64,000 nt of DNA from Candidatus Poribacteria bacterium (GCA_965205025.1 CBDBFU010000014.1:224001-288000), one strand, 5' to 3'; shown: positions 28,675 through 57,192, counted from the first letter of the stretch. A program made the numbers and translations. The notes: generated from the sequence alone by a model not told the origin.

Positions 28675-29165
28675 CCCGGTAGGTGCGGTTTCATGTAGAT
28701 TAAGAAAATATTTCGGTAATTCTAATTTTCCCAAACACGGTAGGTGCGGTTTCCCGGGGAATGCCTTATGGCATTCATACCGTTGATTCACCACGGGGAA
28801 TGCTAAATAGCATTCATACCGTTGATTTGGATCTTTCTTTAAAATTACAGAATTTAAAAATTAATCTACATCTAACCGCACTATTAGCGTCAATTTTAGA
28901 CTATGATTTTATTGGTATTGAGTCCCATAGGGACGGAATGTTTATAGAAAATGTGTATATCCCATAATTGAGTCCCGGGGAATGCCTAAATGGCATTCAT
29001 ACCCGGTGAACGCCAAAAGGCGTTCAACCGTTGATTCCTTGATTTGGTAGGGACGGAATGTATATAGAAGTCGTTATCAGCTAATATCCTAAGCCCCAGC
29101 GGGGCGAAATGTTTGTAGAAAACGGTTAAACCCACTAACAAAGCCCCAGCGGGGCGAAATGTGTA
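28675..29165. repeat. Nested REP/MITE cluster
   Basis: GTAG REP interrupted by an ATGTAGATTAA...TTAATCTACAT TIR element; GAGTCCCGTAGGGAC and AGCCCCAGCGGGGC palindromes; four GAATGC-type hairpin units. Confidence 0.85.
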
Positions 29166-29451
29166 TCCTGAAATTGATGCTTATGGTTTGTAAACTTGTT
29201 GTCACAAGGGAGGGAGATTAAGCATAATAGTGTATCTATCTGACTATGGGAAACCTGAAGGGAGGGAACACTGATACCCAATTAAAAACGTATCATGATT
29301 CGAAGAACGTACCTTCAAGTGATTCATGCCAAAAACTTTACACACCCCATGTAACATGTAACCCTAAATCTTGCTATTATCATCAAACTGTGCTAACATT
29401 GCTCAATATGCAGAATCTTGTTTCCCAGATTTCGATATAAGGAGATTGTCA

Positions 29452-30786
29452 ATGACATTAGATCAGGTAAAACAGATAATTCAAGAGAAAGGCATAGAGT
29501 TCTTCCTATGCTCTTTCGTTGAGATGAGCGGTGCACCAAAGGCAAAAGTCATTCCAGCAACCCATCTTGAGAATATGGCGAATGAAGGTGCGGGTTTTGG
29601 TGGGTTTGCCGCTGGTGAAATAGGACAGTCTCCACATGATCCAGAGATGGCAAGTATTCCGGATTTTAACTCACTCACTGTTGTTCCGTGGAAGGATAAA
29701 TTAGCTTGGGTGGCAGGCGATATGTACGTAGAAGGAGAATCTTGGCACTATTGTCCACGGACTATTCTAAAAAAGCAATTGGCGAAAGCACATGAATTAG
29801 GCTATACCTTCAATGTTGGAATAGAAGCGGAATTTATGTTGTTAAAACAGGATGAGAATGGAAATTATATCCCGTGGGATACACTTGATACAATGGATAA
29901 ACCCTGTTATGACCTTAAAGCCTTGTATCGAAATCTTGATATGATGACAACTCTGATAAAATACATGCAAGAACTGGGATGGGAACCTTATGCAAACGAT
30001 CATGAAGATGGAACATGTCAATATGAACTAAATTGGACATATTCAGATGCTTTAACAACCGCAGATAGACACACATTTTTTAAATGGATGGTCAAAACAG
30101 TAGCAGAGGAAAGCGGTCTATTGGCAACCTTTATGCCAAAACCATTTTCAAACCTTACAGGAAACGGCGCACATTTCCATATGAGTCTATGGGACGAGGA
30201 TAATCAGAAAAACCTCTTCTTAGATGAAGATGACCCGTATGGTCTTTCACAACTTGGATATTGGTTTACTGGAGGTATCCTTCATCATGCAAGTGCATTG
30301 ACAGCTGTCACGAATCCTCTTGTAAATAGCTACAAACGCTTAGTACGAAAAAAACCCCGATCTGGTTCAACATGGGCACCAGTCTATGTCACCTATGGTG
30401 CCAATAACCGAACCCAAATGATCCGAATTCCTGCAGAAGGACGAATTGAAAATCGATTAGGCGATGGTGCAGCGAATCCGTATCTCGCAGCAACAGTTCT
30501 TCTCGCCGCAGGATTAAATGGTATCAAAAATAAGATTGATCCGGGTGAGGCAAATGAAGATAACCTTTATGAAATATCCGATCTTGAAATGGAATTTAGA
30601 GGGATCTATTCACTTCCTTCCACATTGTTTGAAGCAGTAGATTTTCTTGAAGAAGACGAAATTATAAGGAAATCCCTTGGACCGGAATATGCTGACTATT
30701 TCATTGAAGTCAAACGGGAAGAATGGCATAACTACAATTCAAGTGTCAGTCAATGGGAAACCGACAATTATCTAACAGTATATTAA
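29452..30786 (+). CDS. glnT: Type III glutamate--ammonia ligase (GlnT/GmaS-like)
   Basis: G.PKAK.IPA, GAGFGGFA, DHEDG..QYELN, ATFMPKPF and NNRTQMIRIP motifs; AGGAG RBS before ATG 29452. Confidence 0.85.
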   Translation: MTLDQVKQIIQEKGIEFFLCSFVEMSGAPKAKVIPATHLENMANEGAGFGGFAAGEIGQSPHDPEMASIPDFNSLTVVPWKDKLAWVAGDMYVEGESWHYCPRTILKKQLAKAHELGYTFNVGIEAEFMLLKQDENGNYIPWDTLDTMDKPCYDLKALYRNLDMMTTLIKYMQELGWEPYANDHEDGTCQYELNWTYSDALTTADRHTFFKWMVKTVAEESGLLATFMPKPFSNLTGNGAHFHMSLWDEDNQKNLFLDEDDPYGLSQLGYWFTGGILHHASALTAVTNPLVNSYKRLVRKKPRSGSTWAPVYVTYGANNRTQMIRIPAEGRIENRLGDGAANPYLAATVLLAAGLNGIKNKIDPGEANEDNLYEISDLEMEFRGIYSLPSTLFEAVDFLEEDEIIRKSLGPEYADYFIEVKREEWHNYNSSVSQWETDNYLTVY

Positions 30787-30791
30787 ATATA

Positions 30792-31010
30792 CTATAGTTT
30801 GGACAATTTCTGAAAGGTGTTTCACCTATTTTTAAAGTGTTTCTGGTTATTAACCACGTTTCTTACGACAGTCCAACTCTGAGAAAAACAAACTTAGATG
30901 CACCTAACAGTAGCCCCAGCGGGGCGAAATGTGTGTAGAAACACCATACATCCAAGATCCAAGCCCCAGCGGGGCGAAATGTGTATCGCTAAAAACTGTC
31001 CAAACTATAG
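30792..31010. mobile_element. MITE with TIR CTATAGTTTGGACA and 8-bp target duplication
   Basis: CTATAGTTTGGACA...TGTCCAAACTATAG flanked on both sides by TAAATATA; carries two AGCCCCAGCGGGGCGAAATG units. Confidence 0.85.
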
Positions 31011-31183
31011 TAAATATAATCTAATGTATAACGGAAACCCACACTAATACAAACTCACCCAATTCAATTTTAGTCAATCTCCATAGAAAGAATCGGTATT
31101 CATCAATTTTAGTAAATTTATGAATTTATCAATGTAACTATAAGAGTTCTTAAACTGTTAATTACGATAACTTATCTTGTATC

Positions 31184-31212
31184 TTGACAATTGCAAATCT
31201 GAGTGTTATACT
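31184..31212 (+). promoter_or_regulatory. Sigma-70 promoter of the type II R-M operon
   Basis: TTGACA-17 bp-TATACT with extended TG. Confidence 0.75.
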
Positions 31213-31269
31213 CACTTTGTCCAAGAAAAATCCTTCCAAAACTATCCTAATTTCATAGTAGGACTTAAA

Positions 31270-32846
31270 ATGTTGCTAAATCTCAAACAAGCAAGTCAAT
31301 GGGCATCAGACTATCTGAATAAATCCGTCACCACAGCTAACATCACTTATCTAATTCAATACGGAAAGATTGACACTATTTCCAATAATGGATCTAAACT
31401 AATTCCTTTAGATAGTCTTAAAGAATATTATAGTCAATATTGTCGAGAAATGCGTTGGAAAAACGAACTCGGTGAAGACCTTAATTGGGAATTATCTTTC
31501 GAAAAATATAAGGAAGCAGAGACTACTAAACATGTCCACCGTCTACATCCATATAAAGGTAAATTTATACCTCAGTTGGTAGAATATTTTTTAGATCAAC
31601 ATACAGACAACTTTAAGAATGATATATATTTCCAACCAGGGGATGTTGTGCTTGATCCATTTTGTGGAAGTGGAACAACCTTAGTCCAAGCAAATGAATT
31701 AGGTTTACACGCGATAGGCATAGACATTTCTGTTTTTAATTCATTCATTAGTAATGCAAAAGTTGAGAATTTCAACCTAACGAAATTGTATGAGGAATCA
31801 AAAAAAATAACATCCGCTCTTAAAGTAAAAGTGGCATCCTCAAATATAGTTGATTTTGATACTAAACTATCCGATATCTTGACAAAATTTAATAATGAGT
31901 ATTTTCCAATATCCTTCAAAAAACGAGTCAGGAATGGTGAAATTAATCAAAAGAAATATGGAGCAGAAAAAGAAGCTGCATTTTTAAATACATATCAAAA
32001 ACTTATAACAGAGTTTGAAATTGATATTCAAATGCCCACTGATTCAGCACGCTTTATGAAAAAATGGTATCTTCCACGGGTAAAAGCAGAGATAGAATTT
32101 GTCTATAATGAAATATGTAAGGTGGAAGATATATCTATAAAAAACGCTCTAATGCTTATTCTAAGTCGTACTATTCGTTCATGTAGAGCAACAACCCACG
32201 CAGATTTAGGCACATTACGGAATCCAGTTACCACAACTTACTTTTGTAGAAAACATGGTAAAGTTTGTAAACCACTTTTTTTCAATTTTAGGTTGGTGGG
32301 AACGGTATTGTAAGGATAGTATTGAACGATGGAATGAATATGGAAAGTTAAAGACGGATACACATCAATATTGTTTAACTGGGGATTCTCGTACAATAAA
32401 CATCCTAACCATGTTAGAACAGACTAATAAGAAATTAGCAGAAATTGTTCAGAATAGACGAATAAAAGGTATTTTTACAAGTCCACCTTATGTTGGTTTG
32501 ATTAATTACCACGAACAACATGCTTATGCTTATGATCTTTTTGGATTTAAAAGGTTAGACGAATTAGAGATTGGACCTCTCTTTAAAGGAAAGGGTAAAG
32601 ATGCAAGAGAATCTTATGTCCAAGGTGTCTCAGAAGTTCTTAGGAACTGTAAACGATTCTTAGCAGATGATTATAATGTCTTTATCGTAGCCTAATGATA
32701 AGTTTAACTTGTATCCAACAATTGCCGAATTAGCTGATATGAAGATAATAGATCAACACAAACGTCCGGTCCTAAACCGTACTGAGAAAAATAGAGACAC
32801 AGCCTATTCGGAGACGATATTTCATTTGAAAGATAATCAGGTTTGA
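31270..32846 (+). CDS. Type II DNA methyltransferase (N4-C-type, SPPY motif), two apparent frameshifts
   Basis: HRLHPYKGKFIPQLV, DPFCGSGT and TSPPY motifs; frame breaks at T-run about 32276-32282 and at about 32692; reading frame resumes NDKFNLYP...ETIFHLK. Confidence 0.85.
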
Positions 32847-32850
32847 AGAA

Positions 32851-33621
32851 ATGCTATTACAAAGACGCGAAATGATTAAAGAAAAGATAAAGGAGTGTCT
32901 GCGTGATAAATTTCGAGAATATAATCCGGAAACAGACAATATGCCTTTTCATTATCGACTACTCGGAAGAGATAGGATGGCTTTATACTCGTTCATTCAT
33001 TCAATCAATACCAAATTCGGAATTTCATTTTATGAACCAGTTGCAATTGCTTTGGCAAAAGAAAGGTTTAAAATAGCAGACACACAAGTTAAACCTGGAG
33101 ACAAGATAAGTCTTGAAGCACATCAAAGAATACAGACAATAATGAACGGGTTAAGTACTGCAGAAAGAAATCCGAACAAGTCATTAGAAATTCAAGAGAT
33201 AAGGGAAGTCTGTACTTCAGGAAAATTAGAAGACGTTAAACTCACTAAAGTTGATGTCTGGTTAGAAACAGATGAAGGTGAATTGTTTCTAATTGACTTT
33301 AAAACTGTAAAACCTAACAAAGGTGATTTTCAGAAATTTAAGAGGACATTACTTGAATGGAGCGCTGCTGAATTAGCAAGAAATCCGGATGGTGTTGTTA
33401 ATGCTTTAATCGGCATACCATACAATCCTTATGAACCGAAACCATATCAACGATGGACTCTTAAGGGTATGTTTGATCTTAAACATGATATATTGATAGC
33501 AGAAGATCTATGGGATTTTATTGGTGGACAAGGAAGTTATGATGCATTATTGAATGCATTTGAACAAGCAGGGATAGAGTTAAGAAATGAAATTGATGAG
33601 TATTTTGCAAATTTTAAATGA
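32851..33621 (+). CDS. TdeIII/MjaII-family type II restriction endonuclease
   Basis: MPFHYRLLGRDRMALYSFIHS, D...IDFKTVKPN and PYNPYEPKPY motifs; adjacent to MTase. Confidence 0.85.
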   Translation: MLLQRREMIKEKIKECLRDKFREYNPETDNMPFHYRLLGRDRMALYSFIHSINTKFGISFYEPVAIALAKERFKIADTQVKPGDKISLEAHQRIQTIMNGLSTAERNPNKSLEIQEIREVCTSGKLEDVKLTKVDVWLETDEGELFLIDFKTVKPNKGDFQKFKRTLLEWSAAELARNPDGVVNALIGIPYNPYEPKPYQRWTLKGMFDLKHDILIAEDLWDFIGGQGSYDALLNAFEQAGIELRNEIDEYFANFK

Positions 33622-33648
33622 AAATACAAGTTCATTACTCAATTTAAC

Positions 33649-34392
33649 ATGGAGGACATTATGTCTCAGATAAAATCAGTATTCTTATGGGAAAACCAAC
33701 GACGGTATATTCGAGAAGCAATAGATGAAGGCACCCTCAAAGGAGCAATTATACCAACAGGTAGTACAGAACAACACAATGAACACTTGGCAATGTATCA
33801 CGATACACAAAGTGCAGTCTATGTATCTAAATTGGTCGCTGAAAAATTGTATCCAAAGGTTGTTGTAACTACACCATTGGCAATTGGGGTTTCAGAACAC
33901 TGGATGGACCATAAAGGCACACTTACACTTCGCGCGGAAGTCTTTGGTGAAGTACTATACGATGTAGCTGACAGTATGCGGCGCCACGGAATAGAAAACA
34001 TATTGATTGTAAATGGCCATGCAGGGAATGCAGGTCCAGTAACCCAACGATTGGATAGGTATAGAGAAAAACTTGGAATCAACATAGCGTTTCATTCATA
34101 CTGGGAAGCATATACCAGTGAGTTAGTACAAGAACAGATGGAATCTGGAGTATGTCCCGGCCATGCTGCAGAATTTGAAACGGCTTTTGCCCTCGCAGCA
34201 TTTGCAGAAAACGTTGATTGGGATGGGGTTGATTATGATAGTGCTAAACTAACAATTTCAAACGAAGGACAGGCTCAATCTGATAGAGAATACCATCATC
34301 AAGCGAAACTTGCTACAACTGAAAAAGGTCAGGTAATGATTGATGTAGCAGTTGATTGGGTTGCTAAAAAAATGCAGAATTTGATGTCATAG
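33649..34392 (+). CDS. Creatininase family amidohydrolase
   Basis: PTGSTEQH, NGHAGN and GHAAEFET motifs. Confidence 0.92.
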   Translation: MEDIMSQIKSVFLWENQRRYIREAIDEGTLKGAIIPTGSTEQHNEHLAMYHDTQSAVYVSKLVAEKLYPKVVVTTPLAIGVSEHWMDHKGTLTLRAEVFGEVLYDVADSMRRHGIENILIVNGHAGNAGPVTQRLDRYREKLGINIAFHSYWEAYTSELVQEQMESGVCPGHAAEFETAFALAAFAENVDWDGVDYDSAKLTISNEGQAQSDREYHHQAKLATTEKGQVMIDVAVDWVAKKMQNLMS

Positions 34393-34446
34393 ATTATATA
34401 AAACTTTGTTCATTATGAAAGGCGCGTATATTATGCGCGCCTTCTT

Positions 34447-34562
34447 ATACCATTTCTATTTAAATAGTTCACATTACGAATACTCTTAGTAGTCCCCCTG
34501 ATAAGGGGGATTTAGGGGGTTTCTTTAATTAATAATGGGCGATCATTATTTAGAAATGGTAT
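34447..34562. mobile_element. MITE-like element with TIR ATACCATTTCT
   Basis: ATACCATTTCT...AGAAATGGTAT ends enclosing CCCCCTGATAAGGGGGATTTAGGGGG. Confidence 0.75.
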
Positions 34563-34569
34563 TATATTT

Positions 34570-35361
34570 CTAATGACCCTCAAGTGCCTTTCGAAGACCA
34601 TCACCGTGCTCACGCCACCATCCATATAAGATTGAAATATCTGTTCCTATACAGAAATGTCTTACACCCATATCGAGAAATCGTTTTGCCCCATCAGCAC
34701 TACCAATTTCCGCACGAGGGGGTACACCCATCTCTAAAGCTGTTTTAAATACTTTCATCTCTGTATCTTGGATTTCTTGTGAACCCCGCTGACCTACCTT
34801 CCCAATACTCATAGAATAATCTGATCCACCCCACTGAATCATATCTACGCCATCAACAGATAACACCTCTTCAAGATTCTCAACTGTTCCTTTCTTCTCA
34901 ATCATAATGACTACGACAACATCTCTTAAGGCTTGTACGTATTCCGGACCACCACCATATCCCATATACGAAAAACGCCTTGTCGCAACACCATAACTAC
35001 CCCCATCTTCAGGCGTATCTGCTCTTGTTATCTTTACACATTCTTTTACATCATCAACATTTTGACAATCCGCATAGAGAACACTTTGGAAACCGGATCC
35101 GATAGCGCGTTGAGCAATGAATCCGCGCGGCTCCTGGTCAACTTTGATCATTGTTGAAATGTTATGTAGTTCTGCTGCTCTACACAGATTATCCAAATCG
35201 TGGAGATCAAAGGGTCCGTATTCTCCTACAAATTCTACATAATCATACATTCCTGTATGACCTATGGCTTCAACAATTGAGGGCCATGTCGTATGAATAT
35301 GTGTTCCGACAGTAGGTTTGTCAGCATTGAGTAATTCTCGAAAGGTATTTTCTCTCATCAA
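34570..35361 (-). CDS. HpcH/HpaI aldolase family protein
   Basis: IMIEK..TVENLEEVLSVDGVD.I..G.SD motif. Confidence 0.88.
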   Translation of the reverse strand: MMRENTFRELLNADKPTVGTHIHTTWPSIVEAIGHTGMYDYVEFVGEYGPFDLHDLDNLCRAAELHNISTMIKVDQEPRGFIAQRAIGSGFQSVLYADCQNVDDVKECVKITRADTPEDGGSYGVATRRFSYMGYGGGPEYVQALRDVVVVIMIEKKGTVENLEEVLSVDGVDMIQWGGSDYSMSIGKVGQRGSQEIQDTEMKVFKTALEMGVPPRAEIGSADGAKRFLDMGVRHFCIGTDISILYGWWREHGDGLRKALEGH

Positions 35362-35379
35362 TCTTCCTTTTCTATAATA

Positions 35380-35850
35380 ATACCATTTCTGGTAATTAAA
35401 GTCTCATTAATAGAATCTCTTTAATGTAGCACAAACTGTATGAAGATTAACTTTTTAAATCGGTAATTCTAATTCCACAGACCCGGTATGCGGGGAATGC
35501 TAAATAGCATTCATACCGTTGATTTCTTGAGTCCCGTAGGGACGGAATGTCTATAGCAAAGGTATATATCCACATAATTGAGTCCCGTAGGGACGGAATG
35601 TGTATTGAAGTCGTTATCGCCAATATCCTAAGCCCCAGCGGGGCGAAAGGTGTGTAGAAAACGTACTAAACCACTAAACCTAAGCCCCGGTGAATGCCAT
35701 AAGGCATTCATACCGTTGATTTGCGGGGCGAAAGGTGTATCCTTAACCCGTATAATACCGAATTAATATATTAATCTTCATTTAGTTTGTGCAGTATTTC
35801 AAGCCATGCATAAAAAATGTTGATGGGATAAACATTTTTAGAAATGGTAT
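35380..35850. mobile_element. ATACCATTTCT-TIR MITE with nested insertions
   Basis: Outer TIRs; inner ATGAAGATTAA...TTAATCTTCAT element sits in the GTAGCACAAACT/AGTTTGTG palindrome; compare the empty copy at 58530-58657. Confidence 0.85.
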
Positions 35851-36153
35851 AACGCCAGTTTGATAATAAATATGTCAGCTCGATAAATAGTATTTTGTCC
35901 TGAGAATAGTCTTTGTAGCACAAACTTTCCAGTTTGTGCACTCTGGTGTAAACTAAAAGTTTGGGTTACAATGTGTCTTATCAAACTCACGTCATAATAA
36001 TTAAACGATCTACAACTTGTGATAGTAAAAATCTAATGGTATCTATACTACCAGTAATTGATATATTTTTCAACGGCAAAATAGGATTGCTTAGGTGATG
36101 TATTTCTGTTAAACTGATAACAAAACGTGCTAATATAGGAATCTTGTAAAACG

Positions 36154-36936
36154 ATGAAAAATCCAATAAGTCTACCATCAAACTTCTCAGATTATCTACA
36201 AATAGAAAATGCTGACATCCGTTTCCAAGAAGCCACAGATGTTGCTATGAAAATCACAGACGCAGGTGTAAAAATCTATCCGAATATGGATCATGCCGCC
36301 ATTTTCTGTGACCCGCCTCATCTGGTAGCAGATGGTCTGAAACAACTCGGTTATATAAACGGTTGGGATGCAAGATGTTATCCATCCCCTGTTGACGGTT
36401 GTGATTATATAAATGTCTCTGCGCAATTATCTACAGACAGTCCAGCAAGAAAAGAGGGATGGTTTGATTATGTTGCTGTTGTTCATCCTGTTGATAAAAT
36501 AGCATTAGAACATATGCTCGGACAAGGACATGGCAATCCGTTTATACATCATCTGACGTGGGGTATAATTGCTCCAGAACGTGGAAAAAACAATGATTTT
36601 GAATATGCCAGTACGGTTGTACCTTTTATGGTTAATCAACGACAGATTATAGGGGAGGCTATAGGAGATGAACCTGGGACACTTATAATAGCACTGCCAG
36701 AAAACGTCGTTTCAAATCCTAAATTGCAAGATGAATTACCACAGTGGTTAGGAGATTTAAAAGAAGACGAATATCAGATAGAATCCATGCAAGGCGGCGG
36801 TTTTCTGATACAATTCTTTGTGTTAACAGGTGGTAGGATAGAAGTCGCCTTACGGGTAGATACAACCCAAACCTTCAACCCGAAAAGTGTTCACAAAATA
36901 TCCGAAGACGAGATAAGTGCTATTCAAGGAAAATAA
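36154..36936 (+). CDS. Hypothetical protein, possibly VOC/glyoxalase-like metalloenzyme
   Basis: Intact 260 aa ORF; DHAA, IHHL and LIQFF motifs are reminiscent of VOC dioxygenases. Confidence 0.55.
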   Translation: MKNPISLPSNFSDYLQIENADIRFQEATDVAMKITDAGVKIYPNMDHAAIFCDPPHLVADGLKQLGYINGWDARCYPSPVDGCDYINVSAQLSTDSPARKEGWFDYVAVVHPVDKIALEHMLGQGHGNPFIHHLTWGIIAPERGKNNDFEYASTVVPFMVNQRQIIGEAIGDEPGTLIIALPENVVSNPKLQDELPQWLGDLKEDEYQIESMQGGGFLIQFFVLTGGRIEVALRVDTTQTFNPKSVHKISEDEISAIQGK

Positions 36937-36943
36937 TACTGAT

Positions 36944-37133
36944 CAGGACTTACGCATTTCATCTTAAAGTCCCCTTGATAAGGGGCGGGGAATGCCCTAA
37001 GGCATTCATACCCGGGGAATGCTAAATAGCATTCATACCGTTGATTCCTTGATTCTTTAGGGGGTTAAAACACCGAAATGACGGCTTTTTAAGTCAAATT
37101 TTACCTTTTTCTAATTAAGTTGCGTAAGTCCTG
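36944..37133. mobile_element. MITE with TIR CAGGACTTACGCA and 6-bp target duplication ACTGAT
   Basis: CAGGACTTACGCA...TGCGTAAGTCCTG flanked by ACTGAT on both sides; shorter sibling at 58256-58376. Confidence 0.9.
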
Positions 37134-37179
37134 ACTGATAATTCTTAAAACTAAATAATCCTACCCATTTTATCGTTTC

Positions 37180-37208
37180 TTGACCATATACCCCTCCTAT
37201 GTTATAAT
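37180..37208 (+). promoter_or_regulatory. Sigma-70 promoter at the head of the defence island
   Basis: TTGACC-17 bp-TATAAT with extended TG. Confidence 0.8.
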
Positions 37209-37244
37209 CCTCTTACCCAATCCAGATATACACTGAGGGGATAT

Positions 37245-37511
37245 ATGTCAGAAACAGAACAATTATACCTTCCTTTACAAACCGAAAGTAGCCATACTGA
37301 TAACGGTTTTTACGATTCACTAAATTTCATCAGAGAAAACGCAAATTCACAATACGGGGTTGGTAAGGTTTTTGAACGACAACCCCTCACACTGCAGGAA
37401 CATCAACAGAAAGCCTATGACGATGTTATCAACGGTTTCAAAGAATCTGATCGTGGCAAACTAATCATGGCGTGCGGCACACGCAACCCCCTTATACTAC
37501 AACAAAAATAG
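37245..37511 (+). pseudogene. Internally deleted remnant of a Type ISP-like nuclease-helicase R-M gene
   Basis: N-terminal ...G.VFER joined to HQQKA...DRGKLIMACGT (helicase motif I, truncated). Confidence 0.7.
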
Positions 37512-37521
37512 AGGTACCTAC

Positions 37522-40821: not shown

Positions 40822-40905
40822 GAGGAATGTATTGTTCGTAGTCACGCAATTCATTGCCCTCTTACATTATCATTATCTTATAGATCTTAACAAAGAGAAT
40901 TCTAT

Positions 40906-43900: not shown

Positions 43901-44593
43901 CTCATAGACGAAAATAAGAAAAGAGAGTTTTGTGAGAAAAATCATGTGAATGCTAAAATAATTAAGCCCGTTTTGAGAGGTAGAGATATTTCTCGCTATA
44001 TATACACCCTATCTGGACAGCATATTATACTTGCTAAAAATGGTGTTAATGTAAAGAAAGATTACCCCGATATATATGAACATTTAGAATCATTTGGAGA
44101 TAAATTCAAAAAACGTGGAGCGCAAGGACAACATTGGACTAATCTAAGGGCTTGTTCATTTTATGACGATTTCAAAAAGGAAAAGATTGTGTGGATTCCA
44201 TTGTCTGATATAGGGCGGTTTACTATCTGTAATGAAGAAGTTTATCTACTTAATTCTGCGTATTTTTTGTTACCACCTTCAGACATCAATTTAAAACTTT
44301 TGTTAGGTATTTTAAATTCAAGAGTAATTCGTTTTTATTTGGGAAACGTTGCAGTAACAAGTGGAATGGGAACGAGCCAATGGATAAACAATTATGTCAA
44401 AGAATTTCCTATTCCAACAGTTACTACTGAACAACAAACTGAAATCATTGAACTTGTGGATCAGATACTTGATGATAAACAAGCTAACCCCGATGCCAAC
44501 ACTTCCTCCCTTGAAAATGAGATTGATAAGCTGGTGTACGAATTGTATGATTTAACGGAAGATGAGATTGCCATTGTGGAGGGGAGTATCTAA
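40906..44593 (+). CDS. Type IIG/Eco57I-like m6A DNA methyltransferase with TaqI_C-like TRD; apparent frameshift at about 41370-41390
   Basis: PFINGGLF, GSYYTP, LDPAVGSGAF and GNPPY motifs; ORF 40906-41388 continues as DVLGQVTLIKDI in the frame of ORF 41675-44593. Confidence 0.9.
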
Positions 44594-44779
44594 ATCCCTG
44601 ATGCGGAAGATGAGAAGTCTGAAGTAAAGTCGTAGGTAGGTTTGTTATGATACATTGATATATACTCTTACATTTGATTGGCAAATCTACTTCGGAAATG
44701 TTATGATTAAATTGTTCTTCCTATCTCAACAATTGAGTAGAGAATGTTCTTGAGATTCATAACATAAGGAATTAATTTT

Positions 44780-46204: not shown

Positions 46205-46239
46205 TTGCTTGAAGAAGTTTTCCGCTATTAGATCAAATT

Positions 46240-47433: not shown

Positions 47434-47669
47434 CAGGGTAACAGTAAACGCTTGCCATAGCGAATTATCTGATGTTACAGATTATCAATCCGTGTCCTCT
47501 GTGTCCTCCGCAATTCAGACAACAAAGAACGCCGAACATGCAATACACCTCTCACACCAAACACAAACCAATGTCAAGGCTCTCACTTGTAAATGAGATT
47601 GATAAACTGGTCTATGCCTTATATTACCTCATTGATAAAGAAATTGCCGCTTTGGAGGGAATAGAATGA
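47401..47669 (+). repeat. Cassette junction repeat copy 1 (TPR-gene tail, linker, MTase-tail copy)
   Basis: GATGTTACAGATT..CAATCCGTG..ATTCAGACAACAAAGAAC..CACACCAAACACAAACCAATG, then AAATGAGATTGATAAACTGGT (NEIDKLVY) matching 44516-44590. Confidence 0.85.
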
Positions 47670-49042: not shown

Positions 49043-49068
49043 CAATATTAAAACTGTCTGATTGGATA

Positions 49069-49992
49069 TTGATGAAAATGGAAATGATTGATAGATTTCG
49101 TGGGCAGGAAGGAAATAAACGGCTTATTTCGGCATTACGCACACAAGCCATCTTTCATAACAACGAACCTTTAATAAAGGAAATAGCAGACCAAGCTGAA
49201 CTTTTGCAGTTTGAATCAGGAAAGGAATTAATAACTCAAGATAATGTGGATAATGATATCTATTTTATTTTATCTGGACGACTTTCTATCGTTGTTAATG
49301 GACGCGAAGTGGCAATTAGGAATTCTGGACAGTACGTAGGTGAAATGGCGTTGATTGATCCATCTGCTAAGCGTTCTGCCTCGGCTATTGCTATCGAACA
49401 AACGGTTGTTGCGAAAATCTCTGAGGCATCTTTCTATCCGTTAGCAAATAAATATCCAAAAGTCTGGCAGCTAACCGCGATAGAAATTTGTAATAGATTA
49501 CGCCAAAGGAATAGGTTAGTTGTTTCTAAAAATCCACGTCCAGTCTTGTTTATAGGTTCTTCATCGGAATCTCTTGAGGTAGCACGGGCAATTCGTTCTA
49601 ATTTTAATCACGATGATTTTGTTATAAATTTATGGACAGATAAAGTTTTTGGTCCTTCACGGTTTCCAATTGCCGAACTTGAAAAAATGGTTCAACAAGC
49701 CGATTTCGCAGTGTTAGTGCTGGGTCCTGACGATAAGGTAGAAAGTCGAAACGAGAAATCAGATGCACCGCGCGATAATGTAATTTTTGAGTTAGGACTA
49801 TTTATGGGAGCTTTATCACATGAACGAACCTTTATGGTTGTCCCTCGCGAGTGTGATATTAAAATTCCAACTGATTTGTTAGGTCTTATTCCTTTGAAGT
49901 ATAAATCAGATGACTCTAATAATCTTACTTCCTTATTAGGTGCGGTCTGTGATGAACTTCGGGATATAATTAACGAAATGGGTGTTAAATAA
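49069..49992 (+). CDS. pycTIR: Pycsar effector PycTIR (cNMP-binding domain + CAP12-type TIR)
   Basis: CNBD (VGEMALID...RSASA) fused to TIR (FIGSSSE...RDNVIFELGLF); adjacent to a cyclase. Confidence 0.9.
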   Translation: MMKMEMIDRFRGQEGNKRLISALRTQAIFHNNEPLIKEIADQAELLQFESGKELITQDNVDNDIYFILSGRLSIVVNGREVAIRNSGQYVGEMALIDPSAKRSASAIAIEQTVVAKISEASFYPLANKYPKVWQLTAIEICNRLRQRNRLVVSKNPRPVLFIGSSSESLEVARAIRSNFNHDDFVINLWTDKVFGPSRFPIAELEKMVQQADFAVLVLGPDDKVESRNEKSDAPRDNVIFELGLFMGALSHERTFMVVPRECDIKIPTDLLGLIPLKYKSDDSNNLTSLLGAVCDELRDIINEMGVK

Positions 49993-50013
49993 TTTTATAT
50001 AAGGAGAATTATA

Positions 50014-50709
50014 ATGAGTTTAGTTGACGATTATACTGAAGCAGTTAAGGAGATATTTGAGGAAGAATGGGAGACTCGTGAGGGGCAAAAAGTTCCAGAA
50101 TCTGAAGATTTGAAGTTAAGTAACGATGCCGTGGAGTTAGATGGGACAGTGCTTTATGCAGACCTTGATGATTCTACAAACCTTGTGGATAATTACGATC
50201 CAGAATTTGCAGCTGAAATATATAAAGCGTATCTTAATTGTGCTGCTAAGGTGATACGGTCTGAGGGCGGTGAAATTACTTCTTACGATGGTGATCGTAT
50301 CATGGCAGTGTATATTGGCGATGAAAAAGATGATTCTGCTGCTCGTTCAGCATTGAAAATAAACTACACAGTTAAGAAGATCATCAATCCTCTCTTAGAA
50401 GAACATTATCCTGATGAGGATTATCGTGTAAAACAGGTCGTGGGTATTGACACCAGCGAGTTATTTATAGCACGCACTGGAATACGTGGATCAAATGATC
50501 TTGTTTGGGTTGGACGTGCCGCGAACTACGCAGCGAAATTATGTTCACTTTCACCTAATTATCCCTCACGACTGACCAAAGCGGTATACGATAACTTGGA
50601 TAACTCAGTTAAGTATTCAAGTGAAGGGAAGCTTATGTGGGGGGCTGCAAAATGGACAGATATGAATAACATGAAAATTTATCGATCAACTTGGCGGCGG
50701 AAAGTATAG
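50014..50709 (+). CDS. pycC: Pycsar pyrimidine nucleotide cyclase PycC (probable uridylate cyclase)
   Basis: LYADLDDST, YDGDR, VGIDTS and GIRGSNDLVWVGRAANYAAKL motifs; resembles TIR-associated PycC such as that of Burkholderia cepacia. Confidence 0.9.
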   Translation: MSLVDDYTEAVKEIFEEEWETREGQKVPESEDLKLSNDAVELDGTVLYADLDDSTNLVDNYDPEFAAEIYKAYLNCAAKVIRSEGGEITSYDGDRIMAVYIGDEKDDSAARSALKINYTVKKIINPLLEEHYPDEDYRVKQVVGIDTSELFIARTGIRGSNDLVWVGRAANYAAKLCSLSPNYPSRLTKAVYDNLDNSVKYSSEGKLMWGAAKWTDMNNMKIYRSTWRRKV

Positions 50710-50774
50710 GTAAGTTATGCTATTGACTAATTGGAAAATCGAGAGACTATTTGAATCGCTTATGGAGCAAGGAT

Positions 50775-50979
50775 TGTAGATTTTCAATCAGTGTTAATCT
50801 GCGTAATCCGCGTCAATCCGCGATTCTGATAACAAAGTACCTCGAATATACAATACACCCTCACACCAAAACACAGACCAATGTAAAGACTTACACCTGA
50901 AAATGAGATTGTTACGCTCGTATACGCATTGTATAATTTAACAGTAAAGAAAATTGCGATTGTGGAGAAAAAAGAATGA
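50775..50979 (+). repeat. Cassette junction repeat copy 2 (3' part)
   Basis: AATC.GTG/CGT 9-mers, CACCCTCACACCAAAACACAGACCAATG, then GAAAATGAGATTG...TTTAAC...GAAAATTGCGATTGTGGA (MTase tail). Confidence 0.85.
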
Positions 50980-52643
50980 ATACATCAAATCAATCTAATA
51001 CCTCAAATGAAAAACCAAGCACTATTGAGGACATCATCCGGACTATACAAGAAAAGTCAAAAGATGGTAGCTACATCTTCCGTGGTGAACGCCAATGTCG
51101 TAATAAAAAAGTTTCCTCAAAACTTTATCGAGACTTTGAGGATATAGACTCAGAAACATTTGATATTGAGGTAATCCAAAAAGAGATGCTTAGCGGTGCT
51201 AAAAAACATACTGGACATTATCCACAATCAGGGGAGACACCTCCAGACTTCCGTCCAACTCTCGCGAGAATGTTTAGGGTGAGAGAAGAAGATACTGCAG
51301 AAACTATTGATTTTGAGATACTTACTGAAATCCAACACTATGGTGGTAAGACAAATCTAATTGATTTCACGACCGACTATTGCATTGCCCTATTTTTCGC
51401 ATGCGATGGTCACCATGACAAAGACGGTCGATTAATCCTACTAAAAACACAGAATATAAAAGACATGATCAAGTATCCCAAGGAGCCAAGACATCGGGTT
51501 ATCGCCCAGAAAAGTGTAATTGTGCGTCCGCCGAAAGGTTATATTGAACAGCACGAGTATCATATAGTAAAAATCCCCGCTAAACTCAAAGAGGAAGTAC
51601 TACAGTATTTAGAAAAATATCATGGGATTTTCACGGAAACAATCTATAATGATCTTCATGGTTTTATTAGAAACCAGGATATTCATGGAGACGCCAACAC
51701 ATCTTTTTATAGAGGACTCGCATGTAGCAATAGAGGAGATAAAGTGGAAAGCAAAGAAGAAAAACAGAAGGAATATGAAGAAGCTATAACACACTATACT
51801 AAGGTAATCGAATTAAGACCCGATTTTGCTGGGGCATATAACAATCGTGGTAGTGCCTACAGCGATAAAGGTGAGCTTGACAGAGCTATCAAAGACTATG
51901 ACACCGCAATAGAAATCAAACCTGATTATGCTAATGCATATAATAATCGTGGTAGTGTTTACAGCGATAAAGGTGAGTTTGACAAAGCTATCAAAGACTA
52001 TGACACCGCAATAGAAATCAAACCTGATCATGATGCATATATCAATCGTGGTAGTGTTTACAGCGATAAAGGTGAGTTTGACAAAGCTATCAAAGACTAT
52101 GACACCGCAATAGAAATCAAACCTGATCATGATGCATATATCAATCGTGGTATTGTCTACAACAAGAAAGGTGAGTTTGACAAAGCTATCAAAGACTATG
52201 ACACCGCAATAGAAATCAAACCTAATTATGCCAAGGCATATAATAGTCGTGGTATTGCCTACGGAGAAAAAGGTGAGCTTGACAAAGCTATCAAAGACTG
52301 TGACATGGCAATAGAAATCAATCCTAATTATGCTGACGCATATAACAATCGTGGCTTCACCTATCAAAAAAAAGATGATGTTGATAACGCCATAAAAGAT
52401 TATAACACCGCGATAGAATTGGATCCTGGAATGGCAATAGCCTATACTAATCGAGGAGAAGCATGGCTACACTTAAAAGAATGGGATAAAGCGAGAACCG
52501 ACTTAATGACCGCCAAGGACATGGGCATAAGTATTATAGAGTCATTTCAGAATGACTATAAAAGCGTTGCCGACTTTGAGCAGAAGTATAACGTTGAACT
52601 CCCCGAAGACATTGCCGCACTACTAACACCTCCACAGTTATAG
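50976..52643 (+). CDS. FRG domain + expanded TPR array protein
   Basis: YIFRGE, IQHYGGKTNLIDFT and HRVIAQKSV motifs; near-identical TPR units; ends LPEDIAALLTPPQL. Confidence 0.92.
   Translation: MNTSNQSNTSNEKPSTIEDIIRTIQEKSKDGSYIFRGERQCRNKKVSSKLYRDFEDIDSETFDIEVIQKEMLSGAKKHTGHYPQSGETPPDFRPTLARMFRVREEDTAETIDFEILTEIQHYGGKTNLIDFTTDYCIALFFACDGHHDKDGRLILLKTQNIKDMIKYPKEPRHRVIAQKSVIVRPPKGYIEQHEYHIVKIPAKLKEEVLQYLEKYHGIFTETIYNDLHGFIRNQDIHGDANTSFYRGLACSNRGDKVESKEEKQKEYEEAITHYTKVIELRPDFAGAYNNRGSAYSDKGELDRAIKDYDTAIEIKPDYANAYNNRGSVYSDKGEFDKAIKDYDTAIEIKPDHDAYINRGSVYSDKGEFDKAIKDYDTAIEIKPDHDAYINRGIVYNKKGEFDKAIKDYDTAIEIKPNYAKAYNSRGIAYGEKGELDKAIKDCDMAIEINPNYADAYNNRGFTYQKKDDVDNAIKDYNTAIELDPGMAIAYTNRGEAWLHLKEWDKARTDLMTAKDMGISIIESFQNDYKSVADFEQKYNVELPEDIAALLTPPQL
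51835..52420 (+). repeat. Near-identical 99-102 bp TPR-coding tandem repeats
   Basis: AATCGTGGT...GACAAAGCTATCAAAGACTATGACACCGCAATAGAAATCAAACCT repeated about 5-6 times. Confidence 0.92.
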
Positions 52644-52920
52644 CAGCATAGTAAAAAACACTCACCTTAGCAGGTTAACTGATGTTACAGATTCCCAATC
52701 CGTGTAATCTGTGTAATCTGTGTAATCCGACGAATTCCATACGCGGATTCGGCGTTGATTTGGTGATTCAGACAACACAGAACCCCAAACAGACAGGACA
52801 ACCCTAACACCAAAACACAGACCAATGCAAAGGCTTACCCTTGAAAATGATCTTGCTAAGCTGGTCTCCGAACTGTCCAATTTAACGGAAAAAGAAATTG
52901 CGATTGTGGAAAGGTCTGTC
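52600..52920 (+). repeat. Cassette junction repeat copy 3 (complete)
   Basis: CTAACACCTCCACAG tail, AATCTGTGT 9-mers, CACAGACCAATG, then CTTGAAAATGA..TAAGCTGGT..TTTAACGGAA..ATTGCGATTGTGGA. Confidence 0.9.
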
Positions 52921-53015
52921 CGATTGGCAAAAGACGCTTAGATTGAGAGGGAAATAGGGATTTTGGTTGATATGTCGGGGTTGGTTGCGTTATCATTACC
53001 ATCAAGGAATACGAA

Positions 53016-53699
53016 TTGTGCAGGAGAAAAGTTATGCAAGAACTAAATCAAGGGTTTGTTAATGCTTCTTACGACCCCAATTTTATTTATGCTGATAACA
53101 CACTATCTCGCATACAGGATAGTGTTGAGGCGTACAATAACCAAGGCGTTAATCATGCCAAAAATGGACATTATGATCTTGCCATCATCTCCTTCAAAAA
53201 AGCGATAGAACTAAAACCTGATTATGCTACATCTTATTATAATCGAGGTCTAACTTATCTGCTCAACGACGAAGTTGATAAGGCAATAAGAGATTATACA
53301 AAAGTAATAGAACTTAACCCAGATAATGCGGAAGTCTATAACATGCGTGGATGTATTTATTTCAGCAAAAATGTGGTTGACCATGCCATTAAAGACTTTA
53401 ATAAAGCAATAGAGCTGAACCCAGATAATGCCGTTGCCTATAACAACCGCGGTTTAGCTTATGCGAAAAAAAGTCAGGTGGAATTTGCTATTGCTGACTA
53501 TTCTAAAGCGATAGCACTCAATCCCGATTTTGCTGAGGCATATTATTATCGCGGAGGTGCATTGTTACGACTCGAAAAGCGAGAGAGGGCTAAATTAGAC
53601 CTCGCGATTGCCAGAAGCATGGAATATGACTCTCTCATTGCCTTAGACAAAATACTGAAAGATTACGATCGCGCATGGAAAACCCTCGCCAACTTATGA
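53016..53699 (+). CDS. TPR protein
   Basis: About five canonical TPRs (AYNNRG..Y); likely start ATG at 53034. Confidence 0.85.
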   Translation: MCRRKVMQELNQGFVNASYDPNFIYADNTLSRIQDSVEAYNNQGVNHAKNGHYDLAIISFKKAIELKPDYATSYYNRGLTYLLNDEVDKAIRDYTKVIELNPDNAEVYNMRGCIYFSKNVVDHAIKDFNKAIELNPDNAVAYNNRGLAYAKKSQVEFAIADYSKAIALNPDFAEAYYYRGGALLRLEKRERAKLDLAIARSMEYDSLIALDKILKDYDRAWKTLANL

Positions 53700-53786
53700 A
53701 ATATTTAGATGATTGCAGAGAATAAAATCCGCGTCCTCTGTGTCCTCCGCGAATATCCGCGATTCAGATTTTACTCAAAAGTGAAA

Positions 53787-53816
53787 TTGACAAAACCGGC
53801 ACATGTATAGTATGAT
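53787..53816 (+). promoter_or_regulatory. Putative internal sigma-70 promoter
   Basis: TTGACA-18 bp-TATGAT upstream of 53854. Confidence 0.55.
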
Positions 53817-53853
53817 TTAACATTAGAGGTATCTGCATTGTGGTGATCAAAGT

Positions 53854-54887
53854 TTGAACACACAAACAACCGAACTGAACAAGATTTTAGAGATAATTGG
53901 TAGGATAGCAAAAACAACTGCGGATGGAGACTTCATCTACCGCGGCGAACCCGAACATTATAAAGAAGATTCGTACTATGAGAAAGTATCCTCAAGTCTC
54001 TGGCGTGACTGTAGAAAGGAGATTGGAACAGAGGAGTTTGATATAGAAGTCATCCAAAAACAAATGCTGGAAAAGGAGACGTAAAAAACATGCAGACACA
54101 TACAGGACAGGCCTCCTACGATACCGCTATCCAGCACTATAACAAAGCAATCGCTTCAAAACCGAATTTTGCCCACGCTTATAACTATCGCGGCATTGCC
54201 TATAGTAATATAGGTGAGTTTGACCGCGCGATTGAGGATTTCAATAGAGCTATACAACTCAAAGATGACTATGCCGAGGCTTACAGTAATCGTAGTGGTG
54301 TTTACCGTATTCAAGGTGACTATGACCGCGCCATTAAGGATTGTAACACAGCGATAAGACTCGACCCCAATTTGCCAGAAGCATATAACAATCGAGGGAT
54401 AATTTATAAACTCACAGGCGAAATAGATCGGGCTATTGAAGACTATAACACGGCTATAGTACTTGATCCAAACTTCGCTTACGCTTATTACAATCGCGGT
54501 ATTGTCTACCACGAAAGAGACGACTTTGAGCGTGCCATCAGAGACTATACCAAGTCAATAGAACTGAGACCAGACCTTGTCCATCCCTATAATAACCGCG
54601 GGAATGCATACACTCAAAAAGGCGCGTATGAACGTGCTATAAAAGACTATGATGCGGCGATAGAACGGAACACTGATTTAGCAGAGCCGTATTACAATCG
54701 CGGCATGGCGTTTTTAACCCTCGAAAACTGGGATAAGGCAAAATCGGACCTAACAACTGCTGTAGAACTCAAAGAAACTATTGTCCTTGAGAACTTCAGC
54801 AAAGACTATAAAAGCATTGCTAACTTTGAGAAGAAACATAATGTTACCCTACCAGAAAACATCACCGCACTGCTAACACCTCCATAG
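53854..54887 (+). pseudogene. FRG-TPR paralog with most of the FRG domain deleted (split ORFs 53854-54084 and 54090-54887)
   Basis: FIYRGE..KVSS N-terminus but no QHYG core; TPR half ends LPENITALLTPP. Confidence 0.8.
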
Positions 54888-55065
54888 CCATAGCAAAACA
54901 GAAAACACTCACCTTAGCAGATTACCTGATGTAACAGATTACCAATCCGCGTTTTCCGTGTTCTCCGCAATTCAGACAACAAAGAACCCTGAAGGGATAG
55001 GACAACCCCCACACCCAAACACAGACCAATGCCAAAGGGGTGTCTACAGTTTTTGGCATTAATTT
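54850..55065 (+). repeat. Cassette junction repeat copy 4 (MTase tail replaced by ATGCCAAAGGGG...TTTTTGGCAT unit)
   Basis: Same TPR tail and linker blocks as 52600-52830. Confidence 0.85.
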
Positions 55066-55339
55066 ATACCATTTCTGGTAATTAAAGTCTCATTAATAGA
55101 ATCTCTTTTTTGTAGCACAAACTGTATGAAGATTAAGAAAATATTTCGGTAATTCTAATTTTTCCATACCCGGTAGGTGCGGTTTCCTAACCACGGGGAA
55201 TGCTAAATAGCATTCATACCGTTGATTCGAATTTCTAACACATTACCGAATTATTATTTTAAGCTTCATTTAGTTTGTGCCGTATTAGATTACATTTCAC
55301 AAAAACCTGTAATGCGAACCCATTTTTTAGAAATGGTAT
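55066..55339. mobile_element. ATACCATTTCT-TIR MITE with nested element, REP and hairpin unit
   Basis: Same nesting order as 35380-35850. Confidence 0.85.
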
Positions 55340-55512
55340 CAGATAAAATCGAAGATACATTTCATTCACGCCATTGTTAAAACACAATAAACATATGTGA
55401 TTCACGGAAAATTGGTATACTTAAAATTATAAACCCTTATAGAATAAGGGCTCGTAAAATTGCTCCGTGAAGGTTTCCGTGAAAATGCTATCAACTCAGA
55501 ACGATAAATATT

Positions 55513-55638
55513 AACACTTTTTCCATAAAACTTAAAATAATTTGAAGAAAATATAAACATCTAACAACTAACACATATATCACAATAACATAAAATAAAT
55601 TAAATATATTTGTCAAAATCAAAACAAAATGATACAAT
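55513..55638 (+). repeat. About 125 bp AT-rich promoter-containing segment duplicated at 58129-58255
   Basis: Near-identical sequence ending TTGTCA-17-TACAAT in both copies. Confidence 0.85.
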
Positions 55639-57192
55639 ACTATATCGTTCAATAATTATAAACTAAAAATAACACGTTACTTGGGAGATACGAAATATTA
55701 TTTATATCGTGAAAGTATAACTATTTTCTACAGTGTATCTCAAAAATACGAATCGTTCATAACCATATAATTACTCTTCGTAGGGACGGGTTCTCCCCGT
55801 CCGTTATTTCAATATAAAGTACAGTGTAAGAACAAAAAATTCTCCATATATATGATTTATGAGATAAGCTCAAATTATTTAGACTTCTAAACTTTATGCC
55901 AAATTCAACCAAATCCACTATCTGGGAAATAGGAAAATCCATGTTAGAATTACAACCAAAATATTCAGAATTATCACCCCATAAGCAGATACAGAGGAAA
56001 ATCAATGCGAATTCAACCGAATATTTTTTTAGTTTTTCTAATTTTAATATTTTACACCGATTAATCAAATCCTTTGTTATCCCAATCCCCAACAGGGTTT
56101 ACGGCTCATTAAAAAATCATTTCTTAAAAAGCAACTAAAAAAACTTGAAAAACTAAAAGAGCTAAAAAAACTAAAAATTAGACCGGCTTCAAACAAAACA
56201 GACTATCATGCACAACAGTAAACTACAGCGTATCTCATTACTACGAATCGTCCATACAGATATAATTCTCTTCATAGAATTCGGATTTCCCCATCCGTTG
56301 GTTGAAAATATAGCAAATGGCACGTACAAAGAATCCTCCAAATCTATGATTTATGATATATGTTCCAATATCTTGTCAAAATGGAAACACAAAATATTTC
56401 ACATTCAAACAATCCTAAATCAATGGATCAAAAGAAAAGTAAAAGACACAAAATTCATCACCACTTTATAATTTTTACAAATTCTTGTAACCTTAAAAAA
56501 TAGATCTAAACCCAGTGTAGTACTGACGGGATAGAGGTTTTTCCAATGTCACACCATGTGACAAAAAGTGTAACTTTATTCAACATATAAATAACTAAAA
56601 TATTACTATTGTGAACATAAAAAAACAGCAAGATTACAGTAAAATTACCCTCGGTTCAATATAATACATAGAAAAAAGATCCCTATGATACCGTTATATT
56701 CATGCCAAAAACTTTACACACCCATGCCAAAGGGTGTAAACTTTTTGTCACCATAGGTGTTAATTTACACATTAGACTCTTCTGTAGGCGGGGAATGCCT
56801 AAATGGCATTCATACCGTTGATTCCGAACTCCGATTCCCGACTCTTCTCTTCCTCTTCGTAGGGGCGGGGTCTCCCTGACCGATATTTGTATCACAATCT
56901 TCATGAGGATTAAATAAATATTTCGGTAATTCTAATTTTCCCAAACCCGGTAGGTGCGGTTTCCTAACCGCACTGGATTTTTCTTTAAAATTACCGGATT
57001 AAAAAATTAATCTTCATCCAGATTGCGTCTTGCGGTATAGCACAAACTAACAGTTTATGCTACAAAATAGACACATATAGTGACAAATTATTTACATACC
57101 CATGCCAAAGCTTTCACTTGAAAATCCATTTGACGTTATGATATACTGCTGATACAATCAGACTGCAAACATAATATAAGGAGGATTAATCC

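Follow-up and report, generated by a model that had tools for sequence, protein, structure and literature searches.

The described system closest to the element reported here is that of the small dispersed repeats (SDRs) of Nostoc punctiforme and its relatives. Elhai et al. reportedly described SDR1-8 in 2008 as very small mobile repeats of 21-27 nt; compensatory changes are said to keep a hairpin intact in SDR4-6, and SDRs are said to occur nested in themselves, within short tandem repeats and within miniature transposons. We know of no enzyme that has been identified as the mover of SDRs since the 2008 description. Papers citing Elhai 2008 describe SDR5 as a 21-nucleotide unit precisely inserted within HIP1, and one of them states that no SDR was found outside the Nostocaceae. 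Here we analyse a hairpin unit of 35-37 bases that recurs in a stretch of 64,000 nucleotides from a Candidatus Poribacteria bacterium (GCA_965205025.1, CBDBFU010000014.1:224001-288000). We refer to this stretch as the window (G000:C14:224001-288000 in our numbering); the G000 genome, that of a sponge symbiont, comprises 5.66 Mb in 33 contigs and has a GC content of 38%. The unit probably represents a poribacterial family of hairpin micro-elements that are non-coding, non-autonomous and moved in trans, comparable in kind to the Nostoc SDRs. Many of its present copies are fixed cargo of miniature inverted-repeat transposable elements (MITEs) and of arrays resembling repetitive extragenic palindromic (REP) sequences. 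By analogy with the SDRs, the kind of repeat would already be known, and the phylum Poribacteria would be new for it.

Each unit consists of (C)GG(G/T)G, a 7-bp stem with a 4-7-nt loop, ATACC, and an unpaired tail GTTGATT(C/T); the head alone takes up 26-27 nt. The original prediction, made from the sequence of the window, had noted 11 copies, one of them divergent, and reading of the sequence confirmed a start at every noted position. The units are given below together with empty copies of the repeats that they occupy (^ marks the point of insertion; REP-A, REP-B, MITE-E and classes C, D and F are host repeats or contexts).

28755..28789 (+): single unit with loop CTTATG, replacing TA in the loop of the hairpin GGTGCGGTTTCC..ACC(G)CAC (class D host)
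28794..28828 (+): single unit with loop TAAATA, after ..ACCAC; fixed internal module of the class C MITE
28920-28934: empty REP-A copy, for comparison with the filled copy at 28976
28976..29046 (+): nested pair in the REP-A junction GAGTCCC^GTAGGGAC, with a DNA fold of -21.3 kcal/mol (z-score -5.05); outer head 28976-29003, inner unit with stem GAACGCC/GGCGTTC 29004-29037, outer tail CTTGATTTG 29038-29046
35491..35525 (+): single unit with loop TAAATA, after ..CCGGTATGC (class F), within a composite MITE at 35430-35792
35529-35543 and 35580-35594 (+): two empty REP-A junctions, GAGTCCCGTAGGGAC
35631..35644 (+): empty REP-B site, AGCCCCAGCGGGGC, 44 bases upstream of the filled site at 35688
35688..35722 (+): single unit with a GGTG start and loop CATAAG, in REP-B AGCCCC^GCGGGGC; the A in the loop of the empty site is missing here
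36986..37055 (+): nested pair within MITE-E (36944-37133); outer head 36986-37012, inner unit 37013-37047, outer tail CTTGATTC 37048-37055
52728..52763 (+): divergent unit of a second family, CGACGAATTCC..GGATTCGGC GTTGATTTGG, breaking a tandem run of 9-mers (CTGTGTAAT)
55194..55228 (+): single unit with loop TAAATA, the class C module, midway along a MITE bounded by ATGAAGATTAA../..AAGCTTCAT
56789..56824 (+): single unit with loop CTAAATG, after CTGTAGGC (class F-like)
58256..58376 (+): empty MITE-E twin (GATAAGGGG GAT TTAGGGG) of the filled copy at 36944

The 18-mer core of the unit, GCATTCATACCGTTGATT, occurs seven times in exact form within the window, each time on the plus strand, and allowing up to three mismatches adds none; in 100 dinucleotide shuffles it occurred 0.07 times on average and once at most. 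The four noted copies without an exact core are the interrupted outer units at 28976 and 36986, the stem variant at 29004 (GGCGTTCAACC) and the divergent unit at 52728. Tails of the divergent type number 17 in G000, and the type is common in other Poribacteria among the matches listed. The context of the unit at 56789 likewise recurs in other Poribacteria records among the matches listed.

Folded as single-stranded DNA, the unit forms the 7-bp stem and a weak lower stem, CGG/CCG. The two nested pairs fold at -16.1 and -21.3 kcal/mol (z-scores of -3.5 and -5.1); the divergent unit at 52728 folds weakly (z-score -0.81). The predicted covariation of the stem was borne out in a set of 341 units anchored on the unpaired tail alone: all seven pairs are formed in 205 of them, compared with 447 of 1705 (26%) in a control that combined arms from different copies. 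Five paired variants differ at three stem positions: GAATGCC/GGCATTC (81 units), GAATGCT/AGCATTC (72), GAATGAC/GTCATTC (16), GAACGCC/GGCGTTC (13) and GAATGTC/GACATTC (4). Since the stem covaries, the propagating form appears to be a folded strand. Outside the stem, two genera share a conserved stretch of 12 unpaired bases, ATACCGTTGATT.

A pattern search of G000 found 283 oriented heads, 162 on the plus and 121 on the minus strand. The prediction that all copies share one strand thus holds within the window, where 11 of 11 are on the plus strand, and fails genome-wide. A tail, GTTGATTC or GTTGATTT, follows 213 of the 283 heads, and most of the others are followed by another head. Together the heads make up 246 arrays (213 single, 31 double, one triple and one quintuple), only nine of which lie within crude open reading frames. 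The number of TTGATT tails equals the number of heads in 174 of the 246 arrays and in 21 of the 33 arrays with two or more heads; in many arrays that appear to have one head and two tails, the outer head has decayed. Both nested pairs in the window are built as had been claimed, with the inner unit between the ATACC and the TTGATT of the outer one. We add the correction that nesting costs the outer unit its G, ..ATACC G TTGATT becoming ..ATACC [inner] C TTGATT. Elsewhere in G000, a unit lies within the loop of another unit in three places, and 14 arrays lie at the unit's own foot. The view of the unit as a minimal non-coding element with a covarying hairpin that inserts into itself is upheld.

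Most arrays sit in recognisable repeats. Grouped by upstream context, the 246 arrays fall into REP-A, GAGTCCC^GTAGGGAC (28), REP-B, AGCCCC^GCGGGGC (31), a MITE-internal site after ..CCTAACCAC (61), the hairpin GGTGCGGTTTCC^ (27), MITE-E (15), CCGGTAGG^ (26), the unit's own foot (14), positions after a tail (4) and others (40), so that recognised repeat contexts total 206. The interruptions proposed in the window are real: AGCCCC^..GCGGGGC at 35688 can be set against its empty form at 35631-35644, GAGTCCC^..GTAGGGAC at 28976 against three empty copies, and the filled MITE at 36944-37133 against its empty twin at 58256-58376, while the 9-mer run at 52700-52727 is broken by the unit at 52728. Filled and empty versions coexist for four host repeats. 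Genome-wide, there are 178 empty and about 22 filled copies of REP-A, 106 and about 28 of REP-B, 110 and a few of the D hairpin, and 47 and 13 of MITE-E. As predicted, filled copies lack a target duplication; instead, 0-2 target bases are replaced (none or G in REP-A, A in REP-B, TA or A in D, GA in MITE-E and G in the unit's own foot). The ends of the unit are identical in all contexts, and nearly all copies have a C directly 5' of GGGG, with CC, CA or GG ahead of that C; the commonest context is CC or CCC, and the pattern is too variable to count as a fixed target. The suspected preference for palindromic targets is strong, with units at or beside the tips of at least 10 other hairpin repeats. 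Some targets are not loops, the unit being inserted into a stem arm or at the foot of a hairpin. In view of the stem-arm targets, palindrome-seeking is the right description of this preference, and loop-seeking is too narrow. Units within the same kind of ..GTAATCC.. 9-mer run were also seen elsewhere in Poribacteria, in three stretches (L094, L103 and L114).

The likeness to the SDRs lies in build and behaviour, as these are reported for the SDRs. Like them, the unit is dispersed, non-coding and tens of bases long, with a compensated hairpin; it is nested in itself (33 arrays with 2-5 heads) and occurs in a 9-mer run, in MITE-E and in the class C MITE. Insertion precisely at a fixed point of another repeat resembles that of SDR5 in HIP1. 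The SDRs are reported as confined to heterocystous cyanobacteria, whereas the unit occurs in Poribacteria; it measures 35-37 bases as a whole and 26-27 for the head alone, against a reported 21-27, and is built of a head plus a tail.

Among named genome records, at least 85 stretches match the unit; of the matches listed, 84 bear a Candidatus Poribacteria or uncultured Poribacteria title, and the remaining one reads "uncultured bacterium". Complete and nested units occur in the listed stretches, as do repeated tails and the host repeats seen in G000. Plasmid records, cyanobacterial ones included, gave no match to the unit. A match in a viral contig was a single 18-mer with no hairpin partner, and we take it to be due to chance. 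We then surveyed 112 genomes of the family (40 + 65 + 7) for the core, allowing one mismatch. The core is present in all 40 genomes of the window's genus (2-500 copies) and in 58 of the 65 of a sister genus, and was found in none of the seven genomes of four small genera and in none of 16 genomes from other families of the order. A cyanobacterial origin of G000, to which its GC content and SDR-like repeats had pointed, was rejected on the listed record titles and on the presence of the core throughout the window's genus. The numbers of exact and total copies are 179/255 in G000, 76/134 in G022, 53/116 in G021, 115/197 in G023, 90/128 in G001 and 104/140 in G010. The last three genomes have no match to the Y1 transposase model PF01797 (see below), and their share of exact copies, 58-74%, is as high as in the Y1-bearing genomes G022 and G021.

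The orientation of the units is patterned locally. In G000, neighbouring loci switch orientation in 36 of 114 adjacent pairs, compared with an expectation of 56.8 ± 5.3 (none of 5000 shuffles was as low); loci 5-20 kb apart agree at 0.80, and the agreement vanishes past 100 kb. Unit orientation correlates with the local gene strand (r = 0.41) and less with GC skew (r = 0.16), which in G000 follows the gene strand and not the element. Where the two neighbouring genes are in tandem, the unit has the same direction as both in 88 cases and the opposite one in 42 (uncorrected for clustering), and units are biased towards the downstream gene, 153 to 75. A strand bias tied to replication, which the original prediction had proposed to look for, does not exist on the complete chromosomes: strand order is a mosaic along G022 and G021, and a subvariant that is fully listed for the G056 chromosome occurs 26 times on the plus and 27 times on the minus strand, interleaved. 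Replication polarity of the units is ruled out by this mosaic order.

If the unit is an SDR-like element moved in trans, as we think probable, its moving form would be a folded single strand. A protein would recognise the covarying stem by its shape, together with the invariant unpaired ends, cut the unit at both ends and join it into exposed hairpin DNA. The mover would act in trans and would not be a regular companion of the unit from the Y1 (IS200/IS605/RAYT), RVT_1 reverse-transcriptase or IS110 families. True insertions would be rare, and multiplication after them would be mostly passive, together with the carrier repeats.

Several observations weigh against this reading, and they are best considered together with one alternative, namely that the unit has no mobility of its own at present and is an old module in a few repeat families that spreads as cargo of these (DDE-driven MITEs and REP arrays), by gene conversion between repeat copies and by slippage. 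The loop variant of the unit follows the class of its host (TAAATA in 53 of 61 class C arrays, CCTAAG in 12 of 15 class E arrays and CTAAATG in 22 of 28 class A arrays), and its orientation relative to the host is identical in all filled copies. The 61 class C arrays are a fixed module of one MITE, and the tracking of host class by loop variants implies that a large share of the copy number is due to hitch-hiking. The same composites of host and unit also occur in other species, among the matches listed, and the placement of 206 of the 246 arrays in recognised repeats is equally what cargo would give. Parts of the unit multiply by themselves: there is a head-only tandem with a 27-base period and five copies at about 166.6 kb of G000 contig C2, tail-only octamer runs (CCTTGATT) reach five, and up to five tails are found with one head, or five heads with four tails. 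Such lone expansion of heads or tails means that some arrays are products of slippage rather than of nesting. Whole units form tandems with a 35-base period at G023:C1:1044374-1044601 (seven copies) and G010:C91:2468-2590 (four copies). Between species, only whole clusters differ. In three syntenic relatives, whose flanks are 82-94% identical, entire repeat clusters are absent and the gene gaps are far shorter, 78-176 bases for the gap at window positions 28.6-29.35 kb and 0-6 bases for the one at 35.38-36.0 kb; the short gaps show that whole clusters are lineage-specific. Excision or insertion was not directly observed; the short contigs of four public runs, compared with window positions 28400-37400, end at the repeats. 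Finally, none of the enzyme families tested (Y1, RVT_1, IS110, Transposase_31) goes with the element. If each host family had received a single founding insertion and then spread it by co-amplification and gene conversion, the result would look the same. We nevertheless regard spread purely as cargo as unlikely. At least 10 target contexts, and insertions into the unit's own loop and foot by units with differing stems and loops (as at 28976/29004), require real insertions, and the ends of the unit stay constant throughout. The copies are equally intact in all species tested, and the stem covaries, although cargo of a MITE would be unconstrained. Further evidence comes from a tree of 60 MITE-E copies computed with the insert left out. 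The 13 filled copies need 11 changes on this tree, are divided between the two sides of a split that has full support, and are rejected as a single clade (approximately unbiased test, p = 7e-6). It counts on the other side that the filled or empty state is not clustered on the tree beyond chance (105 of 500 shuffles were as low), a pattern that fits either repeated gain and loss or recombination between copies. Units are thus not always co-inherited as part of one larger repeat, the filled MITE-E copies being polyphyletic; the idea of co-inheritance stands in part, in that much of the copy number does ride in MITEs.

The remaining alternatives concern the mover, or the need for one. The original prediction had invoked an HUH/Y1 transposase, that is, a TnpA of IS200/IS605 type or a REP-associated tyrosine transposase (RAYT), which would recognise the hairpin, cut single-stranded DNA and leave no duplication. 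The unit does look the part, with its single imperfect hairpin, conserved unpaired flanks, lack of duplication, and targets that would be single-stranded only in hairpin loops. G000 moreover encodes three intact Y1 proteins of IS200/IS605 type, all on contig 27 (72604-73092 and 86969-87454 on the plus strand, 53023-53508 on the minus strand), scoring 99.9 bits with PF01797, 85 bits with NF033573 (cut-off 55) and 32.7 bits with the RAYT model, below its cut-off of 80. The three genes are bracketed by arrays of the 60-base, GTAG-tagged REP-A repeat (GTAGGGACGGAATGTCTATAG..GAGTCCC), direct upstream and inverted downstream, and relatives L010-L012 have the same layout. Y1 and REP-A constitute a REP/RAYT-like system, and the repeat that belongs to it is REP-A, not the hairpin unit: REP-A flanks all three genes, where the prediction had expected the hairpin and its TTGATT end, and the nearest unit is 435-486 bases upstream, on one side only, of two of the three. 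There are hints of a closer connection, in that the commonest REP-A site of the unit lies exactly 5' of the GTAG tag, a sister element fills the same site in L012, and a tail-like sequence, CGTTGATTTGGTAAGGAC, is found about 60 bases upstream of each Y1 gene in G000; this tail is upstream of Y1 in G000 only. On complete chromosomes, the units show no two-arm strand pattern. Across the 40 genomes of the genus, the number of Y1 matches does not correlate with the number of copies (Spearman -0.04), and the 22 genomes with a close Y1 homologue have a median of 73 copies, compared with 120 in those without. PF01797 has no match in G023 (one contig), G001 or G010, despite 197, 128 and 140 copies, and conversely G061, G063 and G009 have 33, 13 and 21 Y1 matches with 0, 0 and 9 copies, respectively. 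A Y1 mover is thus unsupported, and we consider it improbable. Other enzyme families fare no better. RVT_1 reverse transcriptases are absent from G000, G049 (500 copies), G017 (356 copies), G023 and G001, with a single one in G010, and IS110-type genes were found in none of five high-copy genomes. Rpn/YhgA-like Transposase_31 was considered as mover and dismissed: it occurs in three of three high-copy genomes, but has 24 matches in the element-free genome G062 and none in G061, and its presence in G062 means that it does not discriminate. The genes that G000 has in multiple copies encode DDE transposases of the IS4/IS5, IS630 and IS701 types. Given hundreds of intact copies in genomes that lack Y1, RVT_1 and IS110 genes, it is possible, if clearly less probable than the broader SDR-like reading, that a class of enzyme not yet linked to transposition moves the unit, which would then be a true micro-transposon in search of hairpins. 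Two further explanations seem to us very improbable. In one, reportedly proposed by Elhai et al. for the SDRs, spread is mediated by RNA: a transcript of the unit folds, is inserted or copied back by way of an RNA intermediate and is fixed as DNA. A covarying stem fits RNA as well as single-stranded DNA, and the excess of units co-directed with both neighbouring genes points the same way; on the other side, RVT_1 is present in only one of six high-copy genomes, and an Rfam search of the window gave no match at any unit. The other, for which we see just as little room, makes the unit a selected functional site rather than a selfish element, such as a hairpin that binds a protein or stabilises RNA and carries a tail for recognition, kept in intergenic DNA by selection. 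Conservation of the 12 unpaired bases in two genera, the almost exclusively intergenic placement and the bias towards the downstream gene would suit such a role. The range of 0-500 copies among close species would not, nor would the lack of clusters at the same gene junctions in the nearest relatives, and the piling up of units in units and repeats destroys the contact between outer head and tail.

The reading as an SDR-like element can also be set against other classes of small mobile DNA. Non-autonomous, palindrome-associated derivatives of IS200/IS605 elements have a hairpin at each end and insert 3' of a fixed target of 4-5 bases without duplicating it. The unit resembles them in its dependence on a hairpin, in the absence of target duplication and in a plausibly single-stranded form, and differs in having one hairpin per unit, no replication-strand bias and, as far as a target is concerned, little more than a nearly constant C before the unit. 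The attC sites of integrons have paired core sites, RYYYAAC and GTTRRRY, that bracket a hairpin; the tail GTTGATT is one base off GTTRRRY, and the units in the window have no AATCAAC-type 5' site (an integrase was not searched for). Insertion sequences that target REP hairpins have reportedly been described by Tobes and Pareja in 2006, and IS1397 is said to be another; these share with the unit the preference for palindromic repeats as landing sites, but they carry their own transposase, whereas the unit codes for nothing. MITEs of DDE transposases differ from the unit, whose ends are dissimilar ((C)GGGG and GTTGATTY) and whose insertion involves no duplication and a loss of 0-2 bases. REP sequences and REPINs with their RAYTs (Bertels and Rainey 2011, PMC3116915; Di Nocera et al. 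2013, PMC3733652) are short extragenic imperfect palindromes with hundreds of copies and lineage-specific abundance, which is also true of the unit, and the genuine GTAG-tagged REP family that accompanies Y1 in G000 is the unit's favourite host. However, the unit has no GTAG or CGTC tag, its 5' flank being (C)GG(G/T)G in 94+54+30+27 well-paired units; it does not flank a Y1 gene or co-occur with Y1, has an asymmetric unpaired tail of 12 bases, and is nested in itself. The unit is thus set apart by the defining features of REP/RAYT sequences, IS200/IS605 derivatives, DDE MITEs and attC sites alike.

At 35 bases, and with ends and landing points that are precisely set, such elements push the size limit of mobile DNA downwards, and the window would add a second phylum to SDR-like behaviour. 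Copy numbers that range from 0 to 500 across 112 related genomes make the search for the mover a tractable comparative problem, by association. Should the mover prove to be of a new class, it would also bear on the movement of the Nostoc SDRs, a puzzle of long standing. On the scale of the genome, units and the repeats they have colonised fill and reshape intergenic DNA, in the window around a defence island, and clusters of units break the short-read assemblies of sponge symbionts at every cluster.

The unit is itself a favoured landing site for other elements. An IS630-type insertion sequence (DDE_3 with a helix-turn-helix, 396 amino acids, eight copies in G000) and its MITEs (ends ATGAAGATTAA../..TTAATCTTCAT) land in the loop of the unit, at least five of the eight copies of the insertion sequence doing so; examples in G000 are C2:364218-365500, C20:97679-98955, C12:158749-160085 and C18:60413-61663. 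The idea that the unit is a collapsed pair of ends of this insertion sequence was ruled out, as ends of the insertion sequence and MITEs (ATGAAGATTAA..) also occur in flanks without halves of the unit; the unit is therefore their target and not their remnant. In the window, the composite MITE at 35430-35792 occupies the loop of a hairpin, CACAAACT..AGTTTGTG, of which an empty copy lies 125 bases downstream (35917-35940). The host loop TTCC has become GT..TT, with no clear duplication.

The window's tRNA genes at 15439-15510, 24048-24121 and 24134-24206 are its sole Rfam matches. The region from 29371 to 54887 encodes a glutamine synthetase followed by the defence island, with repeat clusters at the gene junctions. 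The island comprises a DNA methylase with a TdeIII-type restriction enzyme, an SNF2/PLD helicase-nuclease, an Eco57I-like enzyme, three FRG-TPR proteins and a cNMP-binding TIR effector of Pycsar type.

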